64,000 nucleotides of DNA, from contig OZ024763.1 in assembly GCA_964016885.1 (NCBI GenBank), positions 5,890,001 to 5,954,000 of the forward strand, given 5' to 3'. Shown one piece after another: positions 16,191-63,166 of this stretch. This DNA is from Eledone cirrhosa (lineage: Eukaryota). The position numbers and the translations under genes are program-made. Under the pieces are notes generated by a model. The model saw nothing but the letters and a program-made list of their open reading frames with translations. It was not told the origin of the DNA and made no database searches. The number at the start of each line of letters is the position of its first letter. Positions within the stretch are counted from its first letter, which is position 1.

Positions 16191-16210
16191 CATGTATGCA
16201 TGTGTATATA

Positions 16211-16270
<60 letters not shown>

Positions 16271-16681: not shown

Positions 16682-16717
<36 letters not shown>

Positions 16718-16722
<5 letters not shown>

Positions 16723-17566: not shown

Positions 17567-17888
17567 ATACCGAGATGGTACCGATCACATGGGAGAACAT
17601 AAAGATGACGAGAAGGACCTCAGAAGACAAAGTCCCATAGCGTCGCTGTCTTTGGGTCAAACTCGAGATTTCGTCTTCCGTCATGAATGTCACCGTGGTA
17701 ACCAAAGAAAGAAGGGCTTAGCCAAACCTGAGATTGACCCAGTCAAGATAGAACTACAACATGGCAGTCTACTACTAATGAACTATCCTACCAATATCTA
17801 TTGGTACCATTCTCTGCCACAACGTAAGAGATTGGCTAATGTGAGGATCAATATGACATTTAGAGATATGGTTGTTAAATCGCAATAA
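17567..17888 (+). CDS. ALKBH2: ALKBH2 coding exon 4 (catalytic 2OG-Fe(II) motifs, stop)
   Basis: Acceptor ccatag|. Encodes YRDGTDHMGEHKDDE (HxD)...YWYHSLP (distal His)...RINMTFR, then TAA. The four exons sum to 759 nt = 252 aa with consistent phases. Confidence 0.95.
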
Positions 17889-22152: not shown

Positions 22153-22167
22153 TATATATATACATAT

Positions 22168-25100
22168 ATATGAATGACGCATGGCAAATTTAATTTACGA
22201 TACATTAGTGCAGTACTGCCAATCCCGTTGTTGTGGCATCGAATAAACACTAAACTGTTAAGAAGAAAGTTTGAAAATGTCTTAATAAATTAAAAAGCAC
22301 ATTCGTGTGTGTGTCTGTGTGTTATGTGTAACTATACTAGATATAAACACTAATTTCCCTCTTTAAACTATCTCACATACACACGTTTTCACGCATTCCT
22401 ATGAAGAGGTATTGTAGTTATGAAGTAACTACATACTGTATGATCAAATATATTCGAAGTACTGTCAATCACGTTGTGGTTTCCATTAAACTTAACAAAA
22501 AAGTCTGAAAATGTCTTAATATAATCAAAGGCATACTTGTGTGCGTAATGCATAACTATACTAGATATAAACACGGATCTCCCTTTCTCACACAAACACA
22601 CCCTTTGTATAGGAATGGCGCAATGACAGGAGTTGTATTTATGAAGCATCTGTAACTACATATTGTATGTTCAAATATTCGAAGTTGAAATCAACGTTAG
22701 TTCAATGAGATATGAACTTGTGTAGGTAACATGGAACCCATATGTAACCGGTCGACTTGCTCACAAGGACGACCAAATAAAACACATAAATGTGTGTGTC
22801 TCTGTGTGTTATATATAACTATACTAGATATAGACGTCAACAGGAAGACTGTAGATGGCCAATTGTAAGTTCGAATCAACTATAAACCGATGAGGAGTTT
22901 TGAAAAACTTTAAATAAAACACATAAATGTGTGTGTCTGTGTGTTATATATAACTATACTAGATATAGACGTCAACAGGAAGACTGTACATGGCCAATTG
23001 AAAGTTCGAATCAACTATAAACCGATGAGGAGTTTTGAAAAACTTTAAATAAAACACATAAATGTGTGTGTGTCTGTGTGTTATGTATATAAGATATGGG
23101 AAGCCCCCTACGTTGTCGGTCGACTTGTTCGAAATAGTAGCCAAAGACTGCTATTTCTAGCAGGTTTACTGCTGTCCTGTGGACGCACAAGAAAAACCGG
23201 AAGTGGCAGCCATTAAAAAACTTTGGCTTAAAATCAGGCAAAAGTTTTTAAACAATAGAAAATTTAATGTAAACAAACCAGGGTGTTTTTGCCAAGAAAG
23301 ATAACTCTTGTCTTACTTAATCGCAAAAATCGAGACAAAAATTTTGTGTGTGTGTCTGTGTGTTATGTATACAAGATATAGACGCCATTTTGAAGCCCGT
23401 ACGTGGTCGGTCGACTTACTCGAAATAGTAGTCAAAGAGAGGAGATTTTTTTTCACCCGATACAAAAAGTAGGTTTATAAATATTAATTTTCACTATATT
23501 TTTAAGGCGGTCTCGTTGGCCGAGTGGTACGGTGCGTTGAGTCTGCTGAGATACTGGTTGGGGGTTCGATCCCGGCCAACGTCTACACATAGGGGGTCTT
23601 ATTAAACTTTTTCAGTTTTTATTTTATCTCTTAGTATAAAAAGTGAAAAAGTTTAATAAGACCCCTTATGTGTAGACGTTGGCCGGAATCGAAACCCCGA
23701 CCAGTATCTCAGCAGACTCAACGCACCGTACCACTCGGCCAACGAGACCGCCTTAAAAATATAGTGAAAATTAATATTTATAAACCTACTTTTTGTATTG
23801 GGTGAAAAAAAATCTCCTCTCTTTGACTACTATTTCGAGTAAGTCGACCGACCACGTAGGGGCTTCAAAATGGCGTTTATATCTTGTATACATAACACAC
23901 AGACACACACACATTTATGTGTTTTATTTAAAGTTTTTCAAAACTCCTCATCGGTTTATAGTTGATTCGAACCTACAATTCGCCATCTACAGTCTTCCTG
24001 TTGACGTCTATATCTAGTATAGTTATATATAACACACAGACACACACACATTTATGTGATTTGTTTTAAGTTTTTCAAAATTCCTCATTGGTTTATAGTT
24101 GATTCGAACCTACAATTGGCCATCTACAGTCTTCCTGTTGACGTCTATATCTAGTATAGTTATATATAACACACAGACACACACACATTTATGTGTTTTA
24201 TTTTAAGTTTTTCAAAACTCCTCATTGGTTTATAGTTGATTCGAACCTACAATTGGCCATCTACAGTCTTCCTGTTGACGTCTATATCTAGTATAGTTAT
24301 ATATAACACACAGACACACACACATTTATGTGTTTTATTTAAAGTTTTTCAAAACTCCTCATTGGTTTATAGTTGATTCGAACTTACAATTGGCCATCTA
24401 CAGTCTTCCTGTTGACGTCTATATCTAGTATAGTTATATATAACACACAGACACACACATTTATGTGTTTTATTTAAAGTTTTTCAAAACTCCTCATCCG
24501 TTTATAGTTGATTCGAACTTACAATTGGCCATCTACAGTCTTCCTGTTGACGTCTATATCTAGTATAGTTATATATAACACACAGAGACACACACATTTA
24601 TGTGTTTTATTTGGTCGTCCTTGTGAGCAAGTCGACCGGTTACATATGGGTTCCATGTTACCTACACAAGTTCATATCTCATTGAACTAACGTTGATTTC
24701 AACTTCGAATATTTGAACATACAATATGTAGTTACAGATGCTTCATAAATACAACTCCTGTCATTGTGCCATTCCTATACAAAGGGTGTGTTTGTGTGAG
24801 AAAGGGAGATCCGTGTTTATATCTAGTATAGTTATGCATTACGCACACAAGTATGCCTTTGATTATATTAAGACATTTTCAGACTTTTTTGTTAAGTTTA
24901 ATGGAAACCACAACGTGATTGACAGTACTTCGAATATATTTGATCATACAGTATGTAGTTACAGATGCTTCATAACTACAATACCTATACATAGGAATGC
25001 GTGAAAACGTGTGTATGTGAGATAGTTTAAAGAAAGAAATTAGTGTTTATATCTAGTATAGTTACACATAACACACAGACACACGAATGTGCTTTTTAAT

Positions 25101-25213
25101 ATATTAAAACATTTTCAAACTTTCTTCTTAACGGTTTAGTGTTTATTCGAAGCCACAACAACAGGATTGGCAGTACTGCACATTTGTATTAAATTTGCCA
25201 TCCCTCATTCATA
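22168..25213. mobile_element. ~3-kb foldback element: long inverted arms with ~137-bp internal tandem repeats and a central palindrome
   Basis: ORFs 22389-22649(-)/24738-25004(+) and 22697-22879(-)/24508-24690(+) are mirror images. The 135-137-bp unit occurs 2x in the left arm and 5x in the right. The central palindrome spans 23347-23912. Confidence 0.85.
23505..23612 (+). ncRNA. tRNA-like Pol III unit/SINE head (A-box, B-box, T5 terminator); mirror copy 23644-23752 (-)
   Basis: A-box TGGCCGAGTGG, B-box GGTTCGATCCC, self-complementary cgttggccg/cggccaacg, TTTTT at 23608-23612. No canonical anticodon arm recognised. Confidence 0.5.
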
Positions 25214-25699
25214 TTATATATGATAGTTTGTGTGTGAGACACGTTGGCTGAGAACCTCTGACAGGAACTAATAGATTGATTCTTTTTAGCTTCCCGTCCT
25301 CACGTAAAATTTATAAATCGGTGGCTAGTTGAGAGATAGAGTCCTATCGGTTGCCAGTTAATCGCTTTACCATGTCGGTTGTCACAAACAGTTATGACTG
25401 GCGCGGGTCGGTGTTTGGATTATGTCGATCGATTGGTTATTGATTAGGCGATACCCGCTGATGAAGCAGCATAAGCCGATTGTGCATTGTTGCATAATAT
25501 ATGCAGACAGATGGTGCAGTGCACCTTAGTGCTGCAGAAACTCGAGTCCGGGAACCTTGTAGGCACCCGATTAACGTGTGTTGAGTTGAGGCAAATAACT
25601 AAGTGTATACTCTGGTAATGTATCTTACATTGACATTGAGTGCCCTGAGATACAACTGGTACTGGCATTGATAAATATGCTGGGTCCGTCAACCCTTAT

Positions 25700-32875: not shown

Positions 32876-33735
32876 TACACTTGAGAGACAAGGGTAACGG
32901 CTGGTTCTCCAACATAATGGCAAATAAGGTGAGATGCTCTACAAAAGGAGCACGGTAATACAGTATTTACGTATCGAGAGAGAGAAAAAAGGGAAGGATA
33001 GGTAATACATATAGTTATTTGCCAAGTAGCGTATGCCAAAGGTGCTCGATACTAGTGCCGGCAGTATTAATATTCGAAGTGTTAATATTTAGTGGGCTAG
33101 AGAGTTAGCAGAGCGTAAGCACGTGGGAAAGTAAGAAATCGGAGAATTAACCGTTAAAACATGTTTATTTAAAACAGCACCTACGTACGTTTCGCCCAGG
33201 TGGGCTTCTCAAGGGCATAAATAACCAAAAGTGTTCCTTACATTGCTCGGAAATAGTTTGGGGGGGTTACATTCACGTCAAGGTTCATTGCTTGCAAAAA
33301 TAGATTGTTTTGATTCTGGAGCTAGTCAAGGAAGGTAACTCTGGCCGGTGTTAGGGCAGTCTTTCCCGGACAAATTTTTATCCGCTACAAGATGAGGTTA
33401 CAACTTTACCATTGTCGATACGCACAGGGTCATGTAACCAACGCTTATTTTTAGACGTTTGTTTGCCACATATACATTATATATATATATATAAAGAAGA
33501 AAAGATGAAATCGAAAATGCAACTGGAGTCTTTTAAAAAATATATATATATATTTATTTGGTTCCTTTCTATATAACTATGTATATATATAGATATATAA
33601 TTTATATGTGTGTGTGTGTGTGTATTATGTAGGTCTCAATATGTAAACTAAACGACTAACACCGACTACAGAAAAATCAGTGTTAGTCGATTAGAAAAAT
33701 CATCAACTACTGCGACCTTAAAGTATCCCTACAAA

Positions 33736-36700
33736 ATCTCAATTAATAATCTGTACAATTGTGAAAATAATCAAGAAAGCAAGTTAGTAAAGTGAAAGGT
33801 ATGATTTTACATAGTAAGTTGAATGAGTTGTGGCCCTTAGATGAAAGACAACAAAACGAAGAGTCTAGTGAATGCTAGAAATGGCAGCCACTGAATATTA
33901 TAAATAATGATAGTTTTGGTAGTTAAACAACCCTCAAATATATGCCATAGTCAACAGTTTACCCTACAACAGCTTACAAAACTGATGAAAACCTTCTTCA
34001 GCGGTTAATAATACTAGAAATGGCGACTAAATATCCCTCAAATCACAGAGTAGTGACACTGGAAGTATTTAGAACAAATTCAATGATATATATAATATAC
34101 GAGGGTAGGCTGACCAACATTCACTCATGGAATGACCAAATGAGGTTTATTTTTCGACATGCACGATTTCACAGCACTAGCATCACTCCTTCATAGGGTG
34201 ACCAAGATACTCTCATGGAATGACCAAATGAGGTTTATTTTTCAACATGCAAGATTTCACACCCTAGCATCACTCCTTCATAGTGAGCCTATGAACTTTT
34301 AAGCCTATCTTCGATTATGTAAACAATGTATTTATTTAATAAACAAATAATTACTAAGAAATTCGAAATAATTTTTGCACCCATTTTTGCGATTAAGTAA
34401 AGACGGAGTTATCGTTCTTGAGATTTCGGCTCAGAGAAATTTATGGAACTGATGTCGCTAAATCGCCAAATCATTTACCTGCCCCGTTGCATCATGGGAA
34501 GGTAATGGCTGCCTTTTACTTTTCAAAAACCATGGCAGTCTTTTTAATATCTTTCTCGCCAAAATGTTTTAATTATTTACTTATATGAAACAAGGAACAA
34601 GATACTGCGAAAGAAACTAAAGATTCTGCCATCTTTTAAAAAATAAAAGGCAGCCATTACCCTCCCATGAGGCAACGGGGCAGGTAAATGATTTGGCGAT
34701 TTAGCGACATCAGTTCCTTAAATTTCTCCGAGCCGAAATCTCAAGAACGATAACTCTGTCTTTACTTAATCGCAAAAATGGGTGCAAAAATTATTTCGAA
34801 TTTCTTTAACTTTTGACACAATTGTTGCATGAATTAAAAACTGAATTTAAAATATTTTTTGTACATTTTTTAACTGTAGCCATAGTAATTATTTGTATAT
34901 TAAATAAATACATTGTTTACATAATCGAAGGTAGGCTTAAAAGTTCATAGGCTCACTATGAAGGAGTGATGCTAGGGTGTGAAATCTTGTATGTTGAAAA
35001 ATAAACCTCATTTGGTCATTCCATGAGAGTATCTTGGTCACACTATGAAGGAGTGATGCTAGAGCTGTGAAATCTTGCATGTTGAAAAATAAACCTCATT
35101 TGGTCATTCCATGAGCGTATCTTGGTCAGCCTCTGAAGGAGTGATGCTAGAGCTGTGAAATCTTGCATGTTGAAAAATAAACCTCATTTGGTCATTCCAT
35201 GAGCGTATCTTGGTCAGCCTCTGAAGGAGTGATGCTAGAGCTGTGAAATCTTGCATGTTGAAAAATAAACCTCATTTGGTCATTCCATGAGAGTATCTTG
35301 GTCAGCCTATGAAGGAGTGATGCTAGAGCTGTGGAATCTTGCATGTTGAAAAATAAACCTCATTTGGTCATTCCATGAGAGTATCTTGGTCACCCTATGA
35401 AGGAGTGATGCTAGAGCTGTGAAATCTTGCATGTTGAAAAATAAACCTCATTTGGTCATTCCATGAGAGTATCTTGGTCACCCTATGAAGGAGTGATGCT
35501 AGAGCTGTGGAATCTTGCATGTTGAAAAATAAACCTCATTTGGTCATTCCATGAGAGTATCCTGGTCCGCCTATTTTTCAACATGCAAGATTTCACAGCC
35601 CTAGCATCACTCCCTCATCCGCTGACCAAGATACTCTCATGGAATGACCAAATGAGGTTTATTTTTCAACATGCAAGATTTCACAGCTCTAGCATCTCTC
35701 CTTCATAGGCTGACCAAGATACTCTCATGGAATGACTAACATGAGGTTTATTTTTCAACATGCAAGATTTCACAGCTCTAGCATCACTCCTTGATAGGCT
35801 GACCAAGATACTCTCATGAAATGACCAAATGAGGTTTATTTTTCAACATGCAAGATTTCACAGCTCTAGCATCACTCCTTCATATGCTGACCAAGATACG
35901 CTCATGGAATGACCAAATGAGGTTTATTTTTCAACATGCAAGATTTCACAGCTCTAGCATCTCTCCTTCATAGGCTGACCAAGATACTCTCATGGAATGA
36001 CCAAATGAGGTTTATTTTTCAACATGCAAGATTGCACAGCCCTAGCATCACTCCTTCATAGGCTAACCAAGATACTCTCATGGAATGACCAAATGAGGTT
36101 TATTTTTCAACATGCAAGATTGCGCAGCTCTAGCATCACTCCTTCATAAGCTGACCAAGATACTCTCATGGAATGACCAAATGAGGTTTATTTTTCAACA
36201 TGCAAGATTGCACAGCCCTAGCATCACTCCTTCATAGGCTGGCCAAGATACTCTCATGGAATGACCAAATGAGGTTTATTTTTCAACATGCAAGATTGCA
36301 CAGCCCTAGCATCACTCCTTCATAGGCTGGCCAAGATACTCTCATGGAATGACCAAATGAGGTTTATTTTTCAACATGCAAGATTGCACAGCCCTAGCAT
36401 CACTCCTTCATAAGCTGACCAAGATACTCTCATGGAATGACCAAATGAGGTTTATTTTTCAACATGCAAGATTGCACAGTCCTAGCATCACTCCTTCATA
36501 AGCTGACCAAGATACTCTCATGGAATTACCAAATGTGGTTTATTTTTCCACATGCAAGATTGCACAGCCCTAGCATCACTCCTTCATAGTAAGCCTATGA
36601 ACTTTTAAGCCTACCTTCGTATATGTAAACAATGTATTTAATATACAAATAATTACTAAGAAATTCGAAATAATTTTTGCACCCATTTTTGCGATTAAGT

Positions 36701-39700
36701 AAAGACGGAGTTATCGTTCTTGAGATTTCGGCTCGGAGAAATTTAAGGAACTGATGTCGCTAAATCGCCAAATCATTTACCTGCCCCGTTGCATCATGGG
36801 AAGGTAATGGCTGCCTTTTATTTTTCAAAAACCATGGCAGTCTTTTTAATATCTTTCTCGCCAAAATATTTTTAATTATTTACTTATATGAAACAAGGAA
36901 CAAGATACTGCGAAAGAAACTAAAGAATCTGCCATCTTTTAAAAAATAAAAGGCAGCCATTACCTTCCCATGAGGCAACGGGGCAGGTAAATGATTTGGC
37001 GATTTAGCGACATCAGTTCCTTAAATTTCTCCGAGCCGAAATCTCAAGAACGATAACTCTGTCTTTACTTAATCGCAAAAATGGGTGCAAAAATTATTTC
37101 GAATTTCTTTAACTATTGACACAATTGTTGCATGAATTAAAAACTGAATTTAAAGTATTTTTTGTACATTTTTTAACTGTAGCAATAGTAATTATTTGTA
37201 TATTAAATAAATACATTGTTTACATAATCGAAGGTAGGCTTAAAAGTTCATAGGCTCACTATGAAGGAGTGATGCTAGGGTGTGAAATCTTGTATTTTGA
37301 AAAATAAACCTCATTTGGTCTTTCCATGAGAGTATCTTGGTCACACTATGAAGGAGTGATGCTAGAGCTGTGAAATCTTGCATGTTGAAAAATAAACCTC
37401 ATTTGGTCATTCCATGAGAGTATCTTGGTCACCCTCTGAAGGAGTGATGCTAGAGCTGTGAAATCTTGCATGTTGAAAAATAAACCTCATTTGGTCATTC
37501 CATGAGAGTATCTTGGTCAGCCTATGAAGGAGTGATGCTAGAGCTGTGGAATCTTGCATGTTGAAAAATAAACCTCATTTGGTCATTCCATGAGAGTATC
37601 TTGGTCACCCTATGAAGGAGTGATGCTAGAGCTGTGAAATCTTGCATGTTGAAAAATAAACCTCATTTGGTCATTCCATGAGAGTATCCTGGTCCGCCTA
37701 TTTTTCAACATGCAAGATTTCACAGCTCTAGCATCACTCCTTCATAGGGTGACCAAGATACTCTCATGGAATGACCAAATGAGGTTTATTTTTCAACATG
37801 CAAGATTTCACAGCTCTGGCATCACTCCTTCATAGGCTGACCAAGATACTCTCATGGAATGACCAAATAAGGTTTATTTTTCAACATGCACGATTTCATA
37901 GCTCTAGCATCTCTCCTTCATGGGCTGACCAAGATACTCTCATGGAATGACTAACATGAGGTTTATTTTTCAACATGCAAGATTTCACAGCTCTAGCATC
38001 ACTCCTTGATAGGCTGACCAAGATACTCTCATGGAATGACCAAATGAGGTTTATTTTTCAACATGCAAGATTTCACAGCTCTAGCATCACTCCTTCATAT
38101 GCTGACCAAGATACTCTCATGGAATGACCAAATGAGGTTTATTTTTCAACATGCAAGATTGCACAGCCCTAGCATCACTCCTTCATAGGCTGACCAAGAT
38201 ACTCTCATGGAATGACCAAATGAGGTTTATTTTTCAACATGCAAGATTTCACAGCTCTAGCATCACTCCTTCATAGGCTGACCAAGATACGCTCATGGAA
38301 TGACCAAATGAGGTTTATTTTTCAACATGCAAGATTTCACAGCTCTAGCATCTCTCCTTCATAGGCTGACCAAGATACTCTCATGGAATGACCAAATGAG
38401 GTTTATTTTTCAACATGCAAGATTGCACAGCCCTAGCATCACTCCTTCATAGGCTAACCAAGATACTCTCATGGAATGACCAAATGAGGTTTATTTTTCA
38501 ACATGCAAGATTGCACAGCTCTAGCATCACTCCTTCATAAGCTGACCAAGATACTCTCATGGAATGACCAAATGAGGTTTATTTTTCAACATGCAAGATT
38601 GCACAGCCCTAGCATCACTCCTTCATAGGCTGGCCAAGATACTCTCATGGAATGACCAAATGAGGTTATTTTTTCAACATGCAAGATTTCACAGTTCTAG
38701 TATCACTCCTTCATAGGCTGGCCAAGATACACTCATGGAATGACCAAATGAGGTTTATTTCTCAACATGCAAGATTGCACAGACCTAGCATCACTCCTTC
38801 ATAAGCTGACCAAGATACTCTCATGGAATGACCAAATGAGGTTTATTTTTCAACATGCAAGATTGCACAGCCCTAGCATCACTCCTTCATAGGCTGGCCA
38901 AGATACTCTCATGGAATGACCAAATGAGGTTTATTTTTCAACATGCAAGATTTCACAGCCCTAGCATCACTCCCTCATAGGCTGACCAAGATACTCTCAT
39001 GGAATGACCAAATGAGGTTTATTTTTCAACATGCAAGATTTCACAGCTCTGGCATCACTCCTTCATAGGCTGACCAAGATACTCTCATGGAATGACCAAA
39101 TAAGGTTTATTTTTCAACATGCACGATTTCATAGCTCTAGCATCTCTCCTTCATGGGCTGACCAAGATACTCTCATGGAATGACTAACATGAGGTTTATT
39201 TTTCAACATGCAAGATTTCACAGCTCTAGCATCACTCCTTGATAGGCTGACCAAGATACTCTCATGGAATGACCAAATGAGGTTTATTTTTCAACATGCA
39301 AGATTTCACAGCTCTAGCATCACTCCTTCATAGGCTGACCAAGATACTCTCATGGAATGACCAAATGAGGTTTATTTTTCAACATGCAAGATTGCACAGC
39401 CCTAGCATCACTCCTTCATAGGCTGACCAAGATACTCTCATGGAATGACCAAATGATGTTTATTTTTCAACATGCAAGATTTCACAGCTCTAGCATCTCT
39501 CCTTCATAGGCTGACCAAGATACTCTCATGGAATGACCAAATGAGGTTTATTTTTCAACATGCAAGATTGCACAGCCCTAGCATCACTCCTTCATACGCT
39601 AACCAAGATACTCTCATGGAATGACCAAATGAGGTTTATTTTTCAACATGCAAGATTGCACAGCTCTAGCATCACTCCTTCATAAGCTGACCAAGATACT

Positions 39701-42700
39701 CTCATGGAATGATCAAATGAGGTTTATTTTTCAACATGCAAGATTGCACAGCCCTAGCATCACTCCTTCATAAGCTGACCAAGATACTCTCATGGAATGA
39801 CCAAATGAGGTTTATTTTTCAACATGCAAGATTGCACAGCCCTAGCATCACTCCTTCATAGGCTGGCCAAGATACACTCATGGAATGAACAAATGAGGTT
39901 TATTTTTCAACATGCAAGATTGCACAGTCCTAGCATCACTCCTTCATAAGCTGACCAAGATACTCTCATGGAATGACCAAATGAGGTTTATTTTTCAACA
40001 TGCAAGATTGCACAGCTCTAGCGTCACTCCTTCATAGTAAGCCTATGAACTTTTAAGCCTACCTTCGTATATGTAAACAATGTATTTAATATACAAATAA
40101 TTACTAAGAAATTCGAAATAATTTTTGCACCCATTTTTGCGATTAAGTAAAGACGGAGTTATCGTTCTTGAGATTTCGGCTCGGAGAAATTTAAGGAACT
40201 GATGTCGCTAAATCGCCAAATCATTTACCTGCCCCATTGCATCATGGGAGGGTAATGGCTGCCTTTTATTTTTCAAAAACCATGGCAGTCTTTTTAATAT
40301 CTTTCTCGCCAAAATGTTTTAATTATTTACTTATATGAAACAAGGAACAAGATACTGCGAAAGAAACTAAAGAATCTGCCATCTTTTAAAAAATAAAAGG
40401 CAGCCATTACCCTCCCATGAGGCAACGGGGCAGGTAAATGATTTGGCGATTTAGCGACATCAGTTCCTTAAATTTCTCCGAGCCGAAATCTCAAGAACGA
40501 TAACTCCGTCTTTACTTAATCGCAAAAATGGGTGCAAAAATTATTTCGAATTTCTTAGTAATTATTTGTATATTAAATACTTACATTGTTTACATATACG
40601 AAGTTAGGCTTAAAAGTTCATAGGCTCACTATGAAGGAGTGACGCTAGAGCTGTGCAATCTTGCATGTTGAAAAATAAACCTCATTTGGTCATTCCATGA
40701 GAGTATCTTGGTCACACTATGAAGGAGTGATGCTAGAGCTGTGCAATCTTGCATGTTGAAAAATAAACCTCATTTGGTCATTCCATGAGAGTATCTTGGT
40801 CAGCCTATGAAGGAGTGATGCTAGAGCTGTGAAATCTTGCATGTTGAAAAATAAACCTCATTTGATCATTCCATGAGAGTATCTTGGTCAGCCTATGAAG
40901 GAGTGATGCTAGAGCTGTGAAATCTTGCATGTTGAAAAATAAACCTCATTTGGTCATTCCATGAGAGTATCTTGGTCAGCCTATGAAGGAGTGATGCTAG
41001 AGCTGTGAAATATGGCATGTTGAAAAATAAACCTCATTTGATCATTCCATGAGAGTATCTTGGTCAGCCTATGAAGGAGTGTAGCTAGAGCTGTGAAATC
41101 TTGCATCTTGAAAAATACCTCATTTGGTCATTCCATGAGAGCATCTTGGTCAGCCTATGAAGTGGTGATGCTAGAGCTGTGAAATCTTGCATGTTGAAAA
41201 ATAAACCTCATTTGATCATTCCATGAGAGTATGTTGGTCAGCTTATGAAGGAATGATGCTAGGGCTGTGCAATCTTGCATGTTGAAAAATAAACCTCATT
41301 TGGTCATTCCATGAGAGTATCTTGGTCAGCTTATGAAGGAATGATGCTAGAGCTGTGCAATATTGCATGTTGAAAAATAAACCTCATTTGGTCATTCCAT
41401 GAGAGTATCTTGGTCAGCCTATGAAGGAGTGATGCTAGAGCTGTGAAATCTTGCATGTTGCAAAATAAACCTCATTTGATCATTCCATGAGAGTATCTTG
41501 GTCAGCCTATGAAGGAGTGATGCTAGAGCTATGAAATCTTGCATGTTGAAAAATAAACCTCATTTGGTCATTCCATGAGAGTATCTTGGTCAGCCTACGA
41601 AGGAGTGATGCTAGAGCTGTGAAATCTTGCATGTTGAAAAATAAACCTCATTTGGTCATTCCATGAGAGTGTCTTGGTCAGCCTATGAAGGAGTGATGCT
41701 AGAGCTGTGAAATCTTGCATGTTGAAAAATAAACCTCATTTGATCATTCCATGAGAGTATCTTGGTCAGCCTATGAAGGAGTGATGCTAGAGCTGTGAAA
41801 TCTTGCATGTTAAAAAATAAACCTCATTTGGTCATTCCATGAGAGTATCTTGGTCAGTCTATGAAGGAGTGATGCTAGAGCTGTGAAATCTTGCATGTTG
41901 AAAAATAAACCTCATTTGGTCATTCCATGAGAGTATCCTGGTCAGCCTTTTTTTCAACATGCAAGATTTCACAGCTCTAGCATCACTCCTTCATAGGCTG
42001 ACCAAGATACGCTCATGGAATGACCAAATGAGGTTTATTTTTCAACATGCACGATTTCACAGCTCTAGCATCACTCCTTCATAGGCTGACCAAGATACTC
42101 TCATGGAATGACCAAATGAGGTTTATTTTTCAACATGCGCGATTTCATAGCTCTAGCATCTCTCCTTCATAGTCTGACCAAGATACTCTCATGGAATGAC
42201 CAAATGATGTTTATTTTTCAACATGCAAGATTTCACAGCTCTAGCATCACTCCTTCATAGGCTGACCAAGATACGCTCATGGAATGACCAAATGAGGTTT
42301 ATTTTTCAACATGCAAGATTTCACAGCTCTAGCATCTCTCCTTCATAGGCTGACCAAGATACTCTCATAAAATGACCAAATGAGCTTTATTTTTCAACAT
42401 GCAAGATTTCACAGCTCGAGCATCACTCGTTCATATGCTGACCAAGATACTCTCATGGAATGACCAAATGAGGTTTATTTTTCAACATGCAAGATTTCAC
42501 ACCCTAGCATCACTCCTTCATAGTGAGCCTATGAACTTTTAAGCCTACCTTCGATTATGTAAACAATGTAAGTATTTAATATACAAATAATTACTATTGC
42601 TACAGTTAAAAAATGTACAAAAAATACTTTAAATTCAGTTTTTAATTCATGCAACGATTGTGTCAATAGTTAAAGAAATTCGAAATAATTTTTGCACCCA

Positions 42701-45700
42701 TTTTTGCGATTAAGTAAAGACGGAGTTATCGTTCTTGAGATTTCGGCTCGGAGAAATTTAAGGAACTGATGTCGCTAAATCGCCAAATCATTTACCTGCC
42801 CCGTTGCCTCATGGGAGGGTAATGACTGCCTTTTATTTTTTAAACGATGGCAGATTCTTTAGTTTCTTTCGCAGTATCTTGTTCCTTGTTTCATATAAGT
42901 AAGTAATTAAAACATTCTGGCGAGAAAGATATTAAAAAGACTGCCATGGTTTTTAAAAAATAAAAGGCAGCCATTACCCTCCCATGATGCAACGGGGCAG
43001 GTAAATGATTTGGCGATTTAGCGACATCAGTTCCTTAAATTTCTCCGAGCCGAAATCTCAAGAACGATAACTCCGTCTTTACTTAATCGCAAAAATGGGT
43101 GCAAAAATTATTTCGAATTTCTTAGTAATTATTTGTATATTAAATACTTACATTGTTTACATATAAAGTAGGCTTAAAAGTTCATAGGCTCACTATGAAG
43201 GAGTGATGCTAGGGCTGTGCAATCTTGCATGTTGAAAAATAAACCTCATTTGGTCATTCCATGAGAGTATCTTGGTCACACTATGAAGGAGTGATGCTAG
43301 AGCTGTGCAATCTTGCATGTTGAAAAATAAACCTCATTTGGTCATTCCATGAGAGTATCTTGGTCAGCCTATGAAGGAGTGATGCTAGAGCTGTGAAATC
43401 TTGCATGTTGAAAAATAAACCTCATTTGATCATTCCATGAGAGTATCTTGGTCAGCCTATGAAGGAGTGATGCTAGAGCTGTGAAATCTTGCATGTTGAA
43501 AAATAAACCTCATTTGGTCATTCCATGAGAGTATCTTGGTCAGCCTATGAAGGAGTGATGCTAGAGCTGTGAAATCTTGCATCTTGAAAAATACCTCATT
43601 TGGTCATTCCATGAGAGCATCTTGGTCAGCCTATGAAGTGGTGATGCTAGAGCTGTGAAATCTTGCATGTTGAAAAATAAACCTCATTTGATCATTCCAT
43701 GAGAGTATGTTGGTCAGCTTATGAAGGAATGATGCTAGGGCTGTGCAATCTTGCATGTTGAAAAATAAACCTCATTTGGTCATTCCATGAGAGTATCTTG
43801 GTCAGCTTATGAAGGAATGATGCTAGAGCTGTGCAATATTGCATGTTGAAAAATAAACCTCATTTGGTCATTCCATGAGAGTATCTTGGTCAGCCTATGA
43901 AGGAGTGATGCTAGAGCTGTGAAATCTTGCATGTTGCAAAATAAACCTCATTTGATCATTCCATGAGAGTATCTTGGTCAGCCTATGAAGGAGTGATGCT
44001 AGAGCTATGAAATCTTGCATGTTGAAAAATAAACCTCATTTGGTCATTCCATGAGAGTATCTTGGTCAGCCTACGAAGGAGTGATGCTAGAGCTGTGAAA
44101 TCTTGCATGTTGAAAAATAAACCTCATTTGGTCATTCCATGAGAGTGTCTTGGTCAGCCTATGAAGGAGTGATGCTAGAGCTGTGAAATCTTGCATGTTG
44201 AAAAATAAACCTCATTTGATCATTCCATGAGAGTATCTTGGTCAGCCTATGAAGGAGTGATGCTAGAGCTGTGAAATCTTGCATGTTAAAAAATAAACCT
44301 CATTTGGTCATTCCATGAGAGTATCTTGGTCAGTCTATGAAGGAGTGATGCTAGAGCTGTGAAATCTTGCATGTTGAAAAATAAACCTCATTTGGTCATT
44401 CCATGAGAGTATCCTGGTCAGCCTTTTTTTCAACATGCAAGATTTCACAGCTCTAGCATCACTCCTTCATAGGCTGACCAAGATACGCTCATGGAATGAC
44501 CAAATGAGGTTTATTTTTCAACATGCACGATTTCACAGCTCTAGCATCACTCCTTCATAGGCTGACCAAGATACTCTCATGGAATGACCAAATGAGGTTT
44601 ATTTTTCAACATGCGCGATTTCATAGCTCTAGCATCTCTCCTTCATAGTCTGACCAAGATACTCTCATGGAATGACCAAATGATGTTTATTTTTCAACAT
44701 GCAAGATTTCACAGCTCTAGCATCACTCCTTCATAGGCTGACCAAGATACGCTCATGGAATGACCAAATGAGGTTTATTTTTCAACATGCAAGATTTCAC
44801 AGCTCTAGCATCTCTCCTTCATAGGCTGACCAAGATACTCTCATAAAATGACCAAATGAGCTTTATTTTTCAACATGCAAGATTTCACAGCTCGAGCATC
44901 ACTCGTTCATATGCTGACCAAGATACTCTCATGGAATGACCAAATGAGGTTTATTTTTCAACATGCAAGATTTCACACCCTAGCATCACTCCTTCATAGT
45001 GAGCCTATGAACTTTTAAGCCTACCTTCGATTATGTAAACAATGTAAGTATTTAATATACAAATAATTACTATTGCTACAGTTAAAAAATGTACAAAAAA
45101 TACTTTAAATTCAGTTTTTAATTCATGCAACGATTGTGTCAATAGTTAAAGAAATTCGAAATAATTTTTGCACCCATTTTTGCGATTAAGTAAAGACGGA
45201 GTTATCGTTCTTGAGATTTCGGCTCGGAGAAATTTAAGGAACTGATGTCGCTAAATCGCCAAATCATTTACCTGCCCCGTTGCCTCATGGGAGGGTAATG
45301 ACTGCCTTTTATTTTTTAAACGATGGCAGATTCTTTAGTTTCTTTCGCAGTATCTTGTTCCTTGTTTCATATAAGTAAGTAATTAAAACATTCTGGCGAG
45401 AAAGATATTAAAAAGACTGCCATGGTTTTTAAAAAATAAAAGGCAGCCATTACCCTCCCATGATGCAACGGGGCAGGTAAATGATTTGGCGATTTAGCGA
45501 CATCAGTTCCTTAAATTTCTCCGAGCCGAAATCTCAAGAACGATAACTCCGTCTTTACTTAATCGCAAAAATGGGTGCAAAAATTATTTCGAATTTCTTA
45601 GTAATTATTTGTATATTAAATACTTACATTGTTTACATATAAAGTAGGCTTAAAAGTTCATAGGCTCACTATGAAGGAGTGATGCTAGGGCTGTGCAATC

Positions 45701-47275
45701 TTGCATGTTGAAAAATAAACCTCATTTGGTCATTCCATGAGAGTATCTTGGTCACACTATGAAGGAGTGATGCTAGAGCTGTGCAATCTTGCATGTTGAA
45801 AAATAAACCTCATTTGGTCATTCCATGAGAGTATCTTGGTCAGCCTATGAAGGAGTGATGCTAGAGCTGTGAAATCTTGCATGTTGAAAAATAAACCTCA
45901 TTTGATCATTCCATGAGAGTATCTTGGTCAGCCTATGAAGGAGTGATGCTAGAGCTGTGAAATCTTGCATGTTGAAAAATAAACCTCATTTGGTCATTCC
46001 ATGAGAGTATCTTGGTCAGCCTATGAAGGAGTGATGCTAGAGCTGTGAAATCTTGCATCTTGAAAAATACCTCATTTGGTCATTCCATGAGAGCATCTTG
46101 GTCAGCCTATGAAGTGGTGATGCTAGAGCTGTGAAATCTTGCATGTTGAAAAATAAACCTCATTTGGTCATTCCATGAGAGTATGTTGGTCAGCTTATGA
46201 AGGAATGATGCTAGTGCTGTGCAATCTTGCATGTTGAAAAATAAACCTCATTTGGTCATTCCATGAGAGTATCTTGGTCAGCTTATGAAGGAATGATGCT
46301 AGGGCTGTGCAATCTTGCATGTTGAAAAATAAACCTCATTTGGTCATTCCATGAGACTATCTTGGTCAGCCTATGAAGGAGTGATGCTAGAGCTGTGAAA
46401 TCTTGCATGTTGAAAAATAAACCTCATTTGATCATTCCATGAGAGTATCTTGGTCAGCCTATGAAGGAGTGATGCTAGAGCTATGAAATCTTGCATGTTG
46501 AAAAATAAACCTCATTTGGTCATTCCATGAGAGTATCTTGGTCAGCCTATGAAGGAGTGATGCTAGAGCTGTGAAATCTTGCATGTTGAAAAATAAACCT
46601 CATTTGATCATTCCATGAGAGTATCTTGGTCAGCCTATGAAGGAGTGATGCTAGAGCTGTGAAATCTTGCATGTTAAAAAATAAACCTCATTTGGTCATT
46701 CCATGAGAGTATCTTGGTCAGCCTATGAAGGGGTGATGCTAGAGCTGTGAAATCTTGCATGTTGAAAAATAAACCTCATTTGATCATTCCATGAGAGTAT
46801 CTTGGTCAGCCTATGAAGGAGTGATGCTAGAGCTGTGAAATCTTGCATGTTGAAAAATAAACCTCATTTGGTCATTCCATGAGAGTATGTTGGTCAGCCT
46901 ACCCTCGTATATTATATATATCATTGAATTTGTTCTAAATACTTCCAGTGTCACTACTCTGTGATTTGATGGATATTTAGTCGCCATTTCTAGTATTTTT
47001 AACCGCTGAAGAGGGTTTTCGTCAGTTTTGTAAGGTATTGTAGGGTAAACTGTTGAATATGGCATATATTTGAGGGTTGTTTAACCCCTAAAACAATCAT
47101 TATTTATAATATTTCAGTGGCTGCCATTTCTAGCATTCAGTAGACTCTTCGTTTTGTTGTCTTTCATCTAAGGGAAACAACTCATTCAACTTACTATTTT
47201 GTTAAATCATACCTTTCACTTTACTAAGTTGCTTTCTTGATAACTTTCACAATTGTACAGATTATTAATTGAGAT
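33736..47275. repeat. Giant foldback: ~365-bp inverted outer arms enclosing alternating inverted arrays of an 88-bp satellite and five hairpin spacers
   Basis: 33736-34099 is the diverged reverse complement of 46908-47275. The unit ctatgaaggagtgatgctagagctgtgaaatcttgcatgttgaaaaataaacctcatttggtcattccatgagagtatcttggtcagc (88 nt) occurs on both strands between 34100 and 46907. Confidence 0.93.
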
Positions 47276-49330
47276 GTCCCCAGATGTATGTGACAGCACG
47301 GAGGACCTACTCAGCAGAATCGGCGGGAGTAACCGATCTAGGGACCTAACAAACTGCATAATAGGTAGTATGGATGTTGTGTCCCTGTATCCATCTATTG
47401 ACGTGGATTTTGCTGTGGAGAAATGCGTAGAAATGATCAGCGAGAGCAAGGTTGAGTTCCGTGGGATTGATACCAGTGAGCTGGGACTCCTACTTAAACT
47501 TACCTATAGTAATAATTATCTAGACACATATGACCTTAGCAACCTGTGTCCTACAAGACCAGCAAGAGGCAGACCACATACCATTACCTCAATGGCCAAG
47601 AAAACCCACACAGATAGATGGAATGGGTGGACCAGAGCCATACAGACCCCCGAAAACCTCAATGAACTAAAGAAAATGATTGCACATGCGGTGGGGGCCA
47701 GCATAAAATTAACCCTTAAGGAACATATGTTCAAATTTAATGGAAAAACGTATGCCCAAGAGGAGGGAGCAGCCATTGGTGTTAGCATTGCAGGCGACAT
47801 AGCTAACTTATTCATGGTATGGTGGGACAGTAGACTTAAACTTAAACTTAAAGAACAATTAGAAGACCCCTTAACCCTGATAATGTACTCCTGCTACGTT
47901 GATGATATAAACATCGTAGATAAAACACCACCACTAGAGAACAGTCCAGTCAGGAATTTGAGAAAAACACAATGGAAAGCATCCAGCAAATAGCTAACTC
48001 CATCCACCAGAGTATTAGAGTTACTATAGACTACCCAAGCAAACACCCTAACCATCGATTACCTGTACTAGACACAGAGCTCTGGTTAGATACCATTAAT
48101 AACAAAAAACAAATCCTCCATTCCCATTATGCCAAACCCATGGCTTCCAAATATCTGATCCACCGAAACTCAGCTGATTCGGACCATACCAAAATCAACA
48201 TACTGATTGCAGATTTGGTACGGGTGATGAGAAACATGTCCAGCATGTGCAACCCCGAAGAACTAGAGAGACACATACAACACTTCATCCACCGTATGCA
48301 GTTCTCTGGTTACAATCAGAGAGATAAGATCAGAGTATATAGAGGAGCCAGAACCAAATGGGAAAAAATGGTAAATAATGACATAAATGGGACCTGCCCC
48401 TTGTATAGGAGCAAATTTTGGAATAGAATAGAAAGAACTAGGAATAAGGCTAATAGAATAAACTCATGGTATGATAGCAATAAATACCAGAGTGTAATGT
48501 TCATCGATACAACCCCAAGAGGTGAATTAGCTTACAAATTTAGAAGGGCCCTAGATAAACATAAACTCAATATTAAGATAGTAGAAAGACCAGGTACCTC
48601 CATAAAAACACTTATTAGCAAGACATACCCTTTTCAAAGACCCCCCCCCTGTATAGATAAGAAATGTATAACCTGTAAATTAAGCCCCCATATTAACTGT
48701 AAAACTAGAAATGTAGTATATAGCATAAGATGTACTGAAGGACAATGTAGAGATAAAAATATAGCGTACATAGGTGAGACAGCTCGTAGTGTAGGGGAAC
48801 GGATAAATGAACACTGGCGAGACCTTCAAGATAGTAAAGAATCATCTGTACTCTACCAACATGCTAAAATAGAACATAAGGGTAAATTAGAGAACATAGA
48901 AATAAAAATAGAATCTACACAGGAAAGACGCAATGTTTAGACAAATCACAGAGGCAATAAACATAAAAGAATTACAACCAAAATTAAATAGAAAACATGA
49001 GTGGAACAGCAACATCACAACTTACAATTAAGGACAAAATGAAAACACACACACACATAGAACAAACAACCAACCAGTAACATGTAAATAAACAAATAAA
49101 TAAACGAATATAAATACACACAGACACCCGGATGTGGCGCATGTGCAGACTGAGCACACAACACACACACAGAAACAAGATGGCGTAGAACAGAACAAAG
49201 GTACAAAAACAAAGAAAAGAATCCCCAGTCACTGAAGACGTCACAGAATGTGTGACGAAAGAACTTTGACAATATATAAACAACCATCTGGTTGTGGAAC
49301 CAACCAACCAACCGGAAATTTATAAATTCC
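47276..49330 (+). mobile_element. 5'-truncated Penelope-like retroelement (RT + GIY-YIG endonuclease), frameshifted
   Basis: SMDVVSLYPSID...QEEGAAIG...YVDD (RT), thumb LPVLD...HY.KP, Cys-rich linker CIDKKCITC...C, then NVVYSIRC...YIGETARSVGERINEH (GIY-YIG). Hammerhead-like motif in the 3' region. Confidence 0.93.
49228..49270 (+). ncRNA. Minimal type-I hammerhead ribozyme-like motif in the PLE 3' region
   Basis: gtca-CTGAAGA-c-gtcaca gaatg tgtgac-GAAA-gaac-TT-tgac: stem I gtca/tgac, stem II gtcaca/tgtgac, minimal stem III. Confidence 0.7.
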
Positions 49331-49491
49331 TAAATTCATAAATTTATTATAATAGATTGAAGTGAAAGCAACTGGTGCGTGTGTTTCTTATTGGCAACAT
49401 GACCCTCCCAAAATATAACAATATCGGTTTCAACACACGTTTTCAGATAAAGAATCTCGCTAAACAAATTCAGAAACGAAATATATATATT

Positions 49492-51463: not shown

Positions 51464-51979
51464 GCTTCAAGTTTTCTTCCCGCAAGACTTATCACATAAA
51501 TGCAAAGGCTCAAAAATTTCTCAGGGATGAGTTTGGGAACAGGTTTGGGGATAAGGTCTCTTGACCCCCTTCCTCACTTGATTAGAGAGCGGCAGACAAA
51601 TTGGTAAACTGGCAGAAACATAATCACAAAAAAAAGAGACACCCAGTTTTCACTAATTAACCGTTTCTCTTGAATTGTTTTATAAAATATTTGGTGGCAG
51701 TTTTTGTTATTTATTTCAGTGAAGAAAAATATTAACAAAAAAATAACAAAAAGATTTGGTTAAAAACAAAAAAAAAACAAATACCAACAAAATTTACAAG
51801 ATATGAGAGAGGAGTGAGTGAGTGTGTGTGGGGGTGGGGTCTATTACAACAGGTGTATAACACCTGTTTGACCCAACCACCAACACCACCTCTTACCTTC
51901 TACCTCGCCCTTTTGTGGAGGGGGAGGAGAGTTTGTTTTTTAAAAGTTTATAATGATGTGGTTGTTGACAAAATATTAG

Positions 51980-52182
51980 GAGGGCTGGCTGACAATTTCA
52001 TAGGCTGACGATAAAGGAGTGATGCTAGAGCTGTGAAATCTTGCATGCCATTAATTTCAAATTTCAAATCTTATTAATAACTGCATTGTTTCTTTCCAGG
52101 GACTATGTTGAAAATATAAACCTCATTTGGTCATTCCATGAGAGTATCTTGGTCAGCCTATGAACTTTTCAGCCGACCCTCG
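51980..52182 (+). mobile_element. Tc1/mariner-type MITE, copy A (~200 bp)
   Basis: TIRs gagggctggctgacaatttcataggctgac / gtcagcctatgaacttttcagccgaccctcg, then TA. Confidence 0.8.
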
Positions 52183-52193
52183 TATGTATGTAA

Positions 52194-52224
<31 letters not shown>

Positions 52225-52228
<4 letters not shown>

Positions 52229-52423
52229 GGTCGGTTGAAAAGTTCATAGGCTGACTAAAAAGGTATGATGCTAGGACTGCGAAATCTTGCATACCATTAA
52301 TTTCAACTCTTCTTATTAATATCTGCATTGTTTCTTTCCAGGGACTAAGTTGGAAAATAAACCTCATTTGATCATTCCATGAGAGTATCTTGGTCAGCCT
52401 GTGAACTTTTCAGCCGACCCTCA
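52225..52423 (+). mobile_element. Tc1/mariner-type MITE, copy B (199 bp), TA-flanked
   Basis: ~30-bp TIRs tgagggtcggttgaaaagttcataggctgac / gtcagcctgtgaacttttcagccgaccctca, with TA on both sides. Confidence 0.85.
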
Positions 52424-56196: not shown

Positions 56197-56386
56197 ACGA
56201 AGGAAATGTGGTAAAGAACCAGGTGGACCATAACGCACCAAAGTACTCAATACTTAGGGTAGTAGAGTGGGTAATAGGAACGAGTAGGACCCCGACGGCT
56301 GAGCTCAAGCCGTTTCGATGGCTAATTCTGGACTCAGAATTAGCCATCGAAACGGCTTGAGCTCAGCCGTTGGGGTCCTACTCGTT

Positions 56387-56392
<6 letters not shown>
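56195..56392 (-). repeat. Hairpin element copy 3
   Basis: Reverse-complement copy of 16718-16918, flanked by (TA)n. Confidence 0.8.
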
Positions 56393-57881: not shown

Positions 57882-60158
57882 TTGAGTGATCACAGCTCTG
57901 ATATTACAGATATGTGGTTAGAATGTCTCAGGAAAGAATTACTGGACAGATTTGAGAGATCACAGCTCTGATATTACAGATATGTGGTTAGAATGTCTCA
58001 GGAAAGAATCACAGGACAGATTTGAGAGATCACAGCTCTGATATTACAGATATGTTGTTAGAATGTCTCAGGAAAGAATTACTGGACAGATTTGAGAGAT
58101 CACAGCTCTGATATTACAGATATGTGGTTAGAATGTCTCAGGAAAGAATCACAGGACAGATTTGAGAGATCACAGCTCTGATATTACAGATATGTGGTTA
58201 GAATGTCTCAGGAAAGAATCACAGGACAGATTTGAGAGATCACAGCTCTGATATTACAGATATGTGGTTAGAATGTCTCAGGAAAGAATTACTGGACAGA
58301 TTTGAGAGATCACAGCTCTGATATTACAGATATGTGGTTAGAATGTCTCAGGAAAGAATCACAGGACAGATTTGAGAGATCACAGCTCTGATATTACAGA
58401 TATGTTGTTAGAATGTCTCAGGAAAGAATTACTGGACAGATTTGAGAGATCACAGCTCTGATATTACAGAGATGTGGTTAGAATGTCTCAGGAAAGAATC
58501 ACAGGACAGATTTGAGAGATCACAGCTCTGATATTACAGATATGTGGTTAGAATGTCTCAGGAAAGAATTACTGGACAGATTTGAGAGATCACAGCTCTG
58601 ATATTACAGATATGTGGTTAGAATGTCTCAGGAAAGAATCACAGGACAGATTTGAGAGATCACAGCTCTGATATTACAGAGATGTGGTTAGAATGTCTCA
58701 GGAAAGAATCACAGGACAGATTTGAGAGATCACAGCTCTGATATTACAGATATGTGGTTAGAATGTCTCAGGAAAGAATTACTGGACAGATTTGAGAGAT
58801 CACAGCTCTGATATTACAGATATGTGGTTAGAATGTCTCAGGAAAGAATTACTGGACAGATTTGAGAGATCACAGCTCTGATATTACAGATATGTGGTTA
58901 GAACGTCTCAAGAAAGAATTACTGGACAGATTTGAGAGATCACAGTTCTGATATTACAGATATGTGGTTAGAATGTCTCAGGAAAGAATTACTGGACAGA
59001 TTTGAGAGATCACAGCTCTGATATTACAGATATGTGGTTAGAATGTCTCAGGAAAGAATCACAGGACAGATTTGAGAGATCACAGCTCTGATATTACAGA
59101 GATGTGGTTAGAATGTCTCAGGAAAGAATCACAGGACAGATTTGAGAGATCACAGCTCTGATATTACAGATATGTGGTTAGAATGTCTCAGGAAAGAATT
59201 ACTGGACAGATTTGAGAGATCACAGCTCTGATATTACAGATATGTGGTTAGAATGTCTCAGGAAAGAGTCACTGGATAGATTTGAGGGATCACAGCTCTG
59301 ATATTATGGACATGTAGTTAGAATGTCTCAGGAAAGAATTACTGGACAGATTTGAGAGATCACAGTTCTGATATTACAGATATGTGGTTAGAATGTCTCA
59401 GGAAAGAATTACTGGACAGATTTGAGAGATCACAGTTCTGATATTACAGATATGTGGTTAGAATGTCTCAGGAAAGAATTACTGGACAGATTTGAGAGAT
59501 CACAGCTCTGATATTACAGATATGTGGTTAGAATGTCTCAAGAAAGAATTACTGGACAGATTTGAGAGATCACAGTTCTGATATTACAGATATGTGGTTA
59601 GAATGTCTCAGGAAAGAATTACTGGACAGATTTGAGAGATCACAGCTCTGATATTACAGATATGTGGTTAGAATGTCTCAGGAAAGAATTACTGGACAGA
59701 TTTGAGAGATCACAGTTCTGATATTACAGATATGTGGTTAGAATGTCTCAGGAAAGAATTACTGGACAGATTTGAGAGATCACAGTTCTGATATTACAGA
59801 TATGTGGTTAGAATGTCTCAGGAAAGAATTACTGGACAGATTTGAGAGATCACAGTTCTGATATTACAGATATGTGGTTAGAATGTCTCAGGAAAGAATT
59901 ACTGGACAGATTTGAGAGATCACAGTTCTGATATTACAGATATGTGGTTAGAATGTCTCAGGAAAGAATTACTGGACAGATTTGAGAGATCACAGTTCTG
60001 ATATTACAGATATGTGGTTAGAATGTCTCAGGAAAGAATTACTGGACAGATTTGAGAGATCGCAGCTCTGATATTACAGATATGTGGTTAGAATGTCTCA
60101 GGAAAGAGTCACTGGATAGATTTGAGGGATCGCAGCTCTGATATTATGGACATGTAGT
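57882..60158. repeat. 60-bp tandem satellite, ~38 copies, in BICDL1-like intron
   Basis: cacagctctgatattacagatatgtggttagaatgtctcaggaaagaattactggacagatttgagagat. The listing shows this string advancing 10 columns per copy, so the exact period (60 vs 70 nt) should be checked; a 70-nt unit would give ~32 copies. Confidence 0.85.
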
Positions 60159-62260: not shown

Positions 62261-63145
62261 TGAGGGTGTTTGGAAAGTAATTGTGTTTTTCCAGAAAGGA
62301 TGTAAAAACAAATATAAACTAGGTTCATCTGAATAATTTTAATCAAGAATGTAATCACCATCGTTTTCAATGACTGCAGCTCAATAGGAAGGCAATTTTT
62401 TGATGCCATGTTCAAAGAAACATATTTCTTTTCCTGAAAAAAAGTCTCAAAGATTGTTTTCAACTTCCTCTCTGTTTCTGAATGTTTCACCCCTTATAAA
62501 ATGCTCTAGTGATCGGAACAGATAGAAATCTGTGGATGCTAAGTCAGATGAGTATGGAGGATGTGGAAGATCTTCCCATCCTAATGATCTTAATTTTTCT
62601 TGGATTTGTTTTGCAGAGTGTGCACATGCATAGTCTCAAGTATAAGCTCATGAGGAACCCAAATTCCCTCCTTGCACGTTTTCCTAATTTGCCTGAGATG
62701 TTCATGGGTAGTTAACATCACACACTAAATTTATGCACAAAATCTCTGGTGCTTCGAAGTAGTCTCATGCAGAGTGGGCCGTCTTCCTGAGCGAGGCTTG
62801 TCAGATATATCACAATAGTCATCATTAAATATTTTAAGCCACAGCTGGCATGTACAAGCTTTTACGGCATCAGGATACACTCCACAAATGTTTTTCAACG
62901 CTTCCGTAGCAGTACTGCTCTTTAGAAACCCATACATTAAGTAATGACAAATATCTTGTTTCATAAAGTTCTTATCCTCTATGGGGTTAATTACCGAAAT
63001 AACTATGACACACTGCTGAATAGAAAGGTGATATACTGAACTATTTTAAACAGTTCCCACCCATTTGACCTTGGCTCTGACGGGATTGGTTGATTCATAT
63101 TTCATTGTGGTAAAAAAAAACACAATTATTTTCCAAACACCCTAA
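62261..63145 (-). mobile_element. Internally deleted mariner transposon (TIRs plus transposase remnants)
   Basis: TIRs tgagggtgtttggaaagtaattgtgttttt / aaaaaaaacacaattattttccaaacaccctaa. N-terminal HTH remnant MKQDICHYLMYGF...ATEALKNICGVY...W..IF...DISDKPRSGR. C-terminal remnant FFQEK...GIKKLP...VIENDGDYILD across frameshifts. Confidence 0.85.
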
Positions 63146-63166
63146 TGTATTGGTTTTACTTGATTA

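Follow-up and report, generated by a model that had tools for sequence, protein, structure and literature searches.

An 88-bp tandem repeat probably derived from a mariner-type MITE and amplified in mirror image at one locus of Eledone cirrhosa

How does a tandem repeat arise from a transposable element, and does it remain mobile afterwards? A 12.8-kb locus of Eledone cirrhosa, in which arrays of an 88-bp unit change orientation repeatedly near two short mariner-type MITEs, raises both questions. We analysed the locus within a 64-kb stretch of contig OZ024763.1 (hereafter the window), which is TA-rich animal DNA. A sequence-only reading had proposed that the unit arose from the MITE by deletion, and had taken every inverted pair of arrays for an expanded MITE that could be moved in trans. 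We favor, at a probability of roughly 0.8, a different overall account: a single MITE insertion that expanded, was amplified in mirror image and is now immobile, persisting as passive repeat DNA that changes by recombination.

The MITE copies and the origin of the 88-bp unit

The features that relate the MITE to the unit are as follows.

51979..52182, plus strand: MITE copy M1, 204 bp, with 31-bp TIRs and TA on each side
52045..52104, plus strand: 60-bp segment of the MITE that is missing from the array, with ATG at both breakpoints (equivalent placement 52048-52107)
52101..52119, plus strand: remnant of the last mariner transposase codons, reading D-Y-V-E in M1 followed by one inserted base, and V-E-K-stop in the units
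52183..52224, no strand: TA-rich microsatellite of 42 bp between M1 and M2
52225..52423, plus strand: MITE copy M2, 199 bp, less similar to the 88-bp unit than M1 is (80/88)

The interval 51980-52423, initially described as the MITE, indeed contains two TIR-bearing elements, although M1 begins at 51979. These are the two full MITE copies in the 64-kb window, a head-to-tail double insertion with an ungapped identity of 89%. The TIRs of M1 match each other at 26/31 positions and those of M2 at 29/31. TA lies on either side of both copies, as in a TA target duplication, which is weak evidence by itself because the context is TA-rich. Both are short and non-coding, with no ORF of at least 100 codons across them. 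In length, TIRs and TA flanks, M1 and M2 fit MITEs of the Tc1/mariner type. The left TIR of M1 (51979-52015) is unusually worn, with 5/31 positions off its right TIR, though the M1 interior equals the unit consensus. At 52087-52101 the 5' part of the MITE ends with a pyrimidine tract and CAG-G, a splice-acceptor-like sequence located exactly where the transposase tail is joined on.

Aligned to M1, the majority consensus of the unit agrees at 88/88 bases, the alignment containing a single extra base in M1 and one gap of 60 bp; against M2 it agrees at 80/88, with a 56-bp gap (gap lengths derived from the element lengths). Local alignment scores of 146 (M1) and 115 (M2) are far above the best of 2000 unit shuffles against M1 (33.9), so these are not short chance matches. 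Each of the 89 full units that measure exactly 88 bp is nearer to M1 than to M2. The relation proposed earlier thus stands, except that the missing segment, given as about 65 nt, measures 60 bp. Its breakpoints share a 3-bp ATG microhomology. Probing 33700-47300 with 16-mers from the segment gave no match at up to 2 mismatches; since it is missing from the whole locus, the deletion preceded tandem growth.

The expectation that units are joined through the inner right TIR was also borne out: every unit holds 13 bp of inner TIR. Specifically, the unit spans from just past a CTATGAA heptamer inside the left TIR to the identical heptamer in the right TIR, 88 bp apart. The heptamer is perfect in the array's own left end only (5/7 in both M1 and M2), and may therefore have been homogenised later. 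In several plus-strand blocks the first junction has two bases in common with the left end and not with the right TIR, which fits a left-right fusion within this element. Overall, we consider it very probable that the 88-bp unit originated from this MITE family. M1 is a sister copy of the array's MITE and was not accepted as the direct donor: the left TIR of the array differs from that of M1 at 8/31 positions, and the two have no derived state in common. Of the 54 distinct unit variants between 34926 and 46907, five equal the M2 state at the eight sites that distinguish M1 from M2, against a mean of 2.1 under the null (P 0.026, a post hoc test), possibly by conversion from other family copies, or by chance.

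The direction of change can be read from a transposase remnant. M1 encodes D-Y-V-E at 52101-52112, followed by a one-base insertion, and the edge of the deletion lies inside the Tyr codon. The strict tail pattern, selected post hoc after it had been sighted, has a single occurrence in the 64-kb window, and shuffling M1 produced it 12 times in 200000; a looser codon motif appeared in 781 of 50000 shuffles (1.6%). The segment present only in the MITE supplies the missing D-Y codons, with a chance of about 0.008 by composition. Because the MITE keeps the transposase tail, and the deletion cuts through that tail and leaves inner TIR in the units, the MITE is ancestral and the repeat derived. This backs the original proposal of a satellite born from a MITE. 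The five-codon tail is the sole coding remnant, and there is no catalytic sequence in the MITE.

We predict that the MITE derives from an irritans-type mariner. According to Table 1 of PMC5490172, irritans TIRs begin CGAGG, as does the right TIR of M1. Among the 15 transposases of supplement 2 of that paper, three end in GDYVEK, all from the irritans clade, and five end in YVEK. In a further protein search, 75 of the 120 matches listed (724 in total) were 330-370 aa long, and 62 of these 75 end in GDYVEK, a count biased by the query, which itself ends in GDYVEK. In an unbiased set, the relatives of another mariner in the window, 58/150 end in G-x-Y plus 1-6 residues and 2/150 in GDYVEK. Both the CGAGG tip and the GDYVEK-type tail are thus present, and are typical of irritans elements but not formally diagnostic. 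The distance from the stop codon to the end of M2 is 63 bp, compared with 78 bp in the window's other mariner.

No autonomous parent was found in the window or among the 120 of 724 protein matches listed, and none of those listed was a cephalopod-named transposase. The other mariner (62261-63146, minus strand) was considered as parent and rejected, given its different TIRs and a tail reading D-G-D-Y-I-L-D-stop. It is a decayed element of another family, with TIRs, an HTH_48 match (E 3e-10) and in-frame stops; the protein search with it yielded, for longer proteins, 1 match among 9 candidates. Exact patterns of the unit and the TIR gave 0 matches each in bacterial and archaeal genome contigs, a result that is uninformative for a cephalopod repeat.

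Architecture of the array locus

The locus comprises alternating array blocks and palindromic spacers within a pair of inverted outer flanks.

33736..34099, minus: outer flank Z', an inverted copy of 46908-47275 (94.6%), ending in TA
34100..34313, minus: shortened right end, two units and left end, 214 bp
34314..34925, no strand: spacer S1, palindromic, with a central 449-bp foldback (F) at 34357-34805
34926..35572, plus: left end and 7 units, up to head-to-head junction 1
35573..36619, minus: about 11.6 units and left end
36620..37228, no strand: spacer S2
37229..37699, plus: left end and 5 units, to junction 2
37700..40067, minus: about 26.6 units and left end, the longest run
40068..40598, no strand: spacer S3, of a short type in both arms
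40599..41948, plus: left end and 15 units, to junction 3
41949..42553, minus: 6 whole units, a part unit and left end
42554..43162, no strand: spacer S4, inverted relative to S1-S3
43163..44424, plus: left end with damaged TIR tip and 14 units, to junction 4
44425..45029, minus: 6 whole units, a part unit and left end
45030..45638, no strand: spacer S5, equal to S4 at 609/609 positions
45639..46907, plus: left end with damaged tip, 14 units and right end lacking 16 bp of TIR
46908..47275, plus: outer flank Z, beginning with TA and stopping at the start of a Penelope-like retroelement

Tandem Repeats Finder places the 88-bp arrays between 34106 and 46901. The 95 full units called, a set that missed the first units of some blocks, average 97.1% identity to the majority consensus, and the mean pairwise difference over 89 units is 4.9%. 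A 20-mer probe counted 103 units in the locus (55 plus, 48 minus), a lower bound because a few units with indels were missed; elsewhere in the window the same probe matched the two MITEs and nothing else. The term satellite, used in the first description, suits the homogeneous head-to-tail units but is generous as to size, as the longest unbroken run is about 27 units (2.3 kb), below the satellite norm of tens of kilobases.

Masked self-BLAST identified 33736-34109 as an inverted copy of 46898-47275. In inverted orientation the outer flanks show 352 matches and 20 mismatches, and include 364 bp of common host flank. As mirror copies, they imply that the two outer termini are one right end, and both carry the same 16-bp TIR loss, with 15 bp left. 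Likewise, 10/10 internal termini are one left end with one flank, and the two right termini share one flank. MITE termini do lie at the array edges as had been described (TA at 34098-34099 before an end at 34100, an end at 46907 before TA, and ten left-type internal starts), but that description overlooked that the outer two share both their end sequence and their flank, as do the inner ten.

The interior points the same way. The five spacers are copies of one palindromic sequence of 531-612 bp, 96.7-100% alike, each holding a foldback of 449-450 bp; in S2 the foldback arms are near-identical for about 170 bp and enclose a looser centre. The spacer core was considered as a candidate TTAA-type MITE, for which Kolobok-like would be our presumptive label; TTAA flanks it on one side only in 4/5 spacers, and on neither side in S3. 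The four head-to-head junctions lie at one position in the unit, with a 3-bp TAT microhomology and, just before it, a private variant listed in 0/95 full units. By these shared marks all four are copies of one junction, and the 12.8-kb locus is best read as one insertion. The 214-bp two-unit element (34100-34313) was rejected as an independent intermediate, as it has the same two flanks.

The stretch 41100-43690 is identical to one 2476 bp downstream (2591 identical bases), so the last amplification step was recent. If the rate quoted in PMC13282606 applies (a distance of 0.09 for 25 million years), 2.7-2.9% per copy would correspond to roughly 8 million years, a crude age because homogenisation lowers divergence.

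A stepwise model and its alternatives

We propose that the locus began as one copy of a MITE of about 200 bp, derived from an irritans-type mariner and inserted at a TA site. Loss of 60 bp between two ATG triplets would have produced a 143-bp element; the sequence relation is observed, and the element itself is predicted. Slippage or unequal exchange at the 7-bp CTATGAA direct repeat could then have duplicated the interval, either inside a single element or between the members of a head-to-tail dimer such as M1-M2, a route described in PMC5932611, giving two units, after which full-unit homology would drive growth. The right TIR lost 16 bp before the inversion, presumably between its own short direct repeats. 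The array and its flanks were subsequently duplicated in mirror image about the palindromic spacer, a structure that is directly visible although its route is conjectural. Formation of one head-to-head junction through the TAT microhomology, an event whose single origin the private variant records, would have created a 2-4 kb higher-order unit, and unequal exchange together with flips between inverted arms may have generated the five higher-order copies. Neither the one-unit deletion element nor an independent multi-unit MITE was seen in the 64-kb window. The inversion could have arisen either by fold-back or by arm-to-arm copying; fold-back at short inverted repeats is known to generate such palindromes (PMC3907307, PMC4689423).

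The second of these routes could involve an older structure. A MITE may have landed in one arm of a foldback-type element (Z'-spacer-Z), with copying between arms filling the other, as the portion of PMC3573991 on Galileo proposes for TIR extension. Such an event would explain outer flanks of the same sequence without loss of a host flank, and would leave the origin of the unit unchanged. The spacer arm also shares 52 bp (85-87%, E 8e-10) with a palindromic 3-kb element at 22160-25221, so it is partly a dispersed repeat. However, the Z arms, 5.4% apart, have diverged no further than the two terminal units, which differ at 5 of 90 positions, and an older divergence of the arms is therefore not visible, and neither a terminus nor a target duplication was recognised at 33736 or 47275. 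We regard this history as possible but somewhat doubtful.

Alternatively, and also tentatively, the array may have been born elsewhere and arrived by transposition as a tandem-bearing MITE similar to DTC84, with only later growth and inversion being local. A two-unit element with both ends would measure just 214-231 bp, and tandem-bearing MITEs are reported in the DTC84 account of PMC3879986. Against an arrival of this kind, there is no second flank in the window, and both copies have a broken right TIR, which would place any move before the TIR loss.

Returning to a single, immobile insertion, the second of our opening questions concerns mobility. The suggestion that a mariner transposase could act in trans on every inverted pair of arrays, as on an expanded MITE whose ends are still usable, did not hold up and is very unlikely. 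In its favor, three of the four internal left-left pairs (1.7-2.8 kb) have a full 31-bp left TIR at each end, in inverted orientation. However, both ends of a pair trace to a single left end and its flank, one tip has been lost, and 0/4 pairs have TA on both sides. The pair TIRs differ from the right TIR of M1 at 4/31 positions, and within the window no pair lies at an unrelated site, nor was any independent array insertion with different flanks found. The two left-right segments carry the sole right end, which lacks 16 bp of TIR and retains 15 bp. In Mos1, the transposase linker contacts TIR bases 15-18 and HTH1 the inner TIR, according to the structural details drawn from PMC4505599, so a 16-bp loss in the middle of the TIR should cripple the right end, by analogy with an element of another subfamily. 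Judged by their ends and flanks, the arrays show no sign of transposition.

A related scenario, to which we assign a slim chance, is that a Foldback-type transposon is forming de novo. The mirror-duplicated, expanded MITE would be bounded on both sides by a full mariner TIR and would hold about 100 inner TIR half-sites, and an irritans transposase could move the 1.7-2.8 kb units or be soaked up by them. The 52 bp common to the spacer and the 22160-25221 palindrome hints that a foldback family in the genome does this repeatedly.

It is highly improbable that the inverted higher-order structure is an artefact of assembly or amplification: the copy represented by 41100-43690 and its downstream duplicate, with S4 identical to S5, could be mis-assembled, but the other arms are 2-5% apart, with shared derived variants and orientation changes that are unlike chimeric reads. 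Least probable of all is that the MITE captured a pre-existing 88-bp repeat and that M1 and M2 gained 60 bp later, a process that PMC12628747 reports, in its treatment of Xenopus, for the Tc1/mariner MITE miDNA4, but which is difficult to reconcile with units that hold 13 bp of inner TIR and a tail cut within the Tyr codon, with D-Y codons supplied by the MITE-only segment, and with the lack of any unit outside MITE-ended blocks in the window.

Comparison with known systems, and the surrounding window

In the review sections that list them (PMC12628747, PMC9659126), MITE-derived tandem repeats are known from Xenopus (Xstir, miDNA4), rye, ants and bivalves. As described there after Hikosaka and Kawahara 2004, the Xstir/Xmix MITE of Xenopus likewise has tandem units from the MITE interior, with MITE, array and composite forms co-occurring, as here; the Eledone locus differs from it in its mariner-type parent, TA sites, a deletion unit joined via the inner TIR, and mirror duplication with flanks. 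The miDNA4 element of Xenopus tropicalis (Scalvenzi and Pollet 2014) is similar in being a Tc1/mariner MITE with a variable inner array and microhomology. The two reviews' passages on it differ, PMC12628747 favoring capture of a pre-existing repeat and PMC9659126 birth within the MITE, whereas here the cut transposase tail marks the direction, with one insertion seen in the window. Among molluscs, the account of DTC84 from the clam Donax trunculus (PMC3879986) describes MITE ends around ordered tandem variants, a comparable arrangement. However, DTC84 is Pearl-like and high-copy, with an AA target and up to five repeats, in contrast to the TA target, at least 103 units and one broken end found here.

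The long inverted arms with tandem repeats that grow by unequal exchange resemble Tetris/TIR-220 of Drosophila virilis and Galileo, as portrayed in parts of PMC4079207 and PMC3573991. Those are true foldback families, whereas the arms here are a duplicated insertion plus host flank without a target duplication of their own. The locus shows long inverted arms with tandem repeats, and no termini with a target duplication of their own were recognised at its outer limits. The M1-M2 pair, as a head-to-tail double insertion, is reminiscent of the TE dimers presented as satellite seeds in the relevant text of McGurk and Barbash 2018 (PMC5932611); deleting sequence across a dimer junction of this kind would yield the unit junction found at the locus. 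M1-M2 is not the seed itself, because neither copy has the 60-bp deletion. The irritans mariners and MITEs covered in the pertinent part of PMC5490172 share the CGAGG start, TA target, C-terminal GDYVEK and microhomology at deletion breakpoints; unlike those mariners, the MITE here has no catalytic domain left, and its parent was not found. At a far larger scale, satellite blocks in cichlid centromeres alternate in orientation around inverted TE-like elements, in the description taken from PMC13652916.

In the open-licence literature we found no report of this element or of a MITE-derived repeat in a cephalopod. The locus is a clean example of a known birth route for repeated DNA and not a new kind of element; its notable features are the readable direction and the palindromic higher-order structure. 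The origins of tandem repeats are mostly inferred from old, blurred cases, whereas here each step leaves a scar within 20 kb: the parent MITE, a 3-bp microhomology, a 7-bp repeat that sets the unit length, the cut tail, and junctions of single origin from which the order of amplification can be read. It is well suited to testing MITE-to-satellite models and to the study of palindromic higher-order repeats in cephalopods; no function is indicated.

Other features were predicted across the window. Adjoining the locus at 47276-49340 (plus strand) is a 5'-truncated retroelement with a reverse transcriptase (weak RVT_1) and a GIY-YIG-like tail (clusters with HTH_animal and GIY-YIG), which we take to be probably Penelope-like. 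It starts exactly at the end of the outer inverted repeat, and masked self-BLAST did not find the remaining outer flank beyond it. The 3-kb foldback-like palindrome at 22160-25221 has arms that are 96% alike and each contain tandem repeats of 135-137 bp; the 52 bp in common with the spacer lie at 23293-23343. Short near-perfect palindromes at 9310-9713 (404 bp at 99%), 16722-16840 and 56277-56388 (about 115 bp) are probably other MITE families. Scanned against Rfam at gathering scores, the window gave 0 matches. Probable ALKBH2 exons were identified at 14245-17888 (plus strand), of which 17547-17885 matches 2OG-FeII_Oxy_2 and is 79% identical to Octopus vulgaris and 78% to O. bimaculoides, above all other identities in the list of 120 of 193 matches. 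A 2053-codon open frame at 1925-8086 (plus strand) contains several tandem peptide repeats and, near its end, a weak Tantalus-like match (E 1e-4, below the cut-off). A second tandem array, with a 70-bp unit in 32 copies at 96% matches, occupies 57882-60146.
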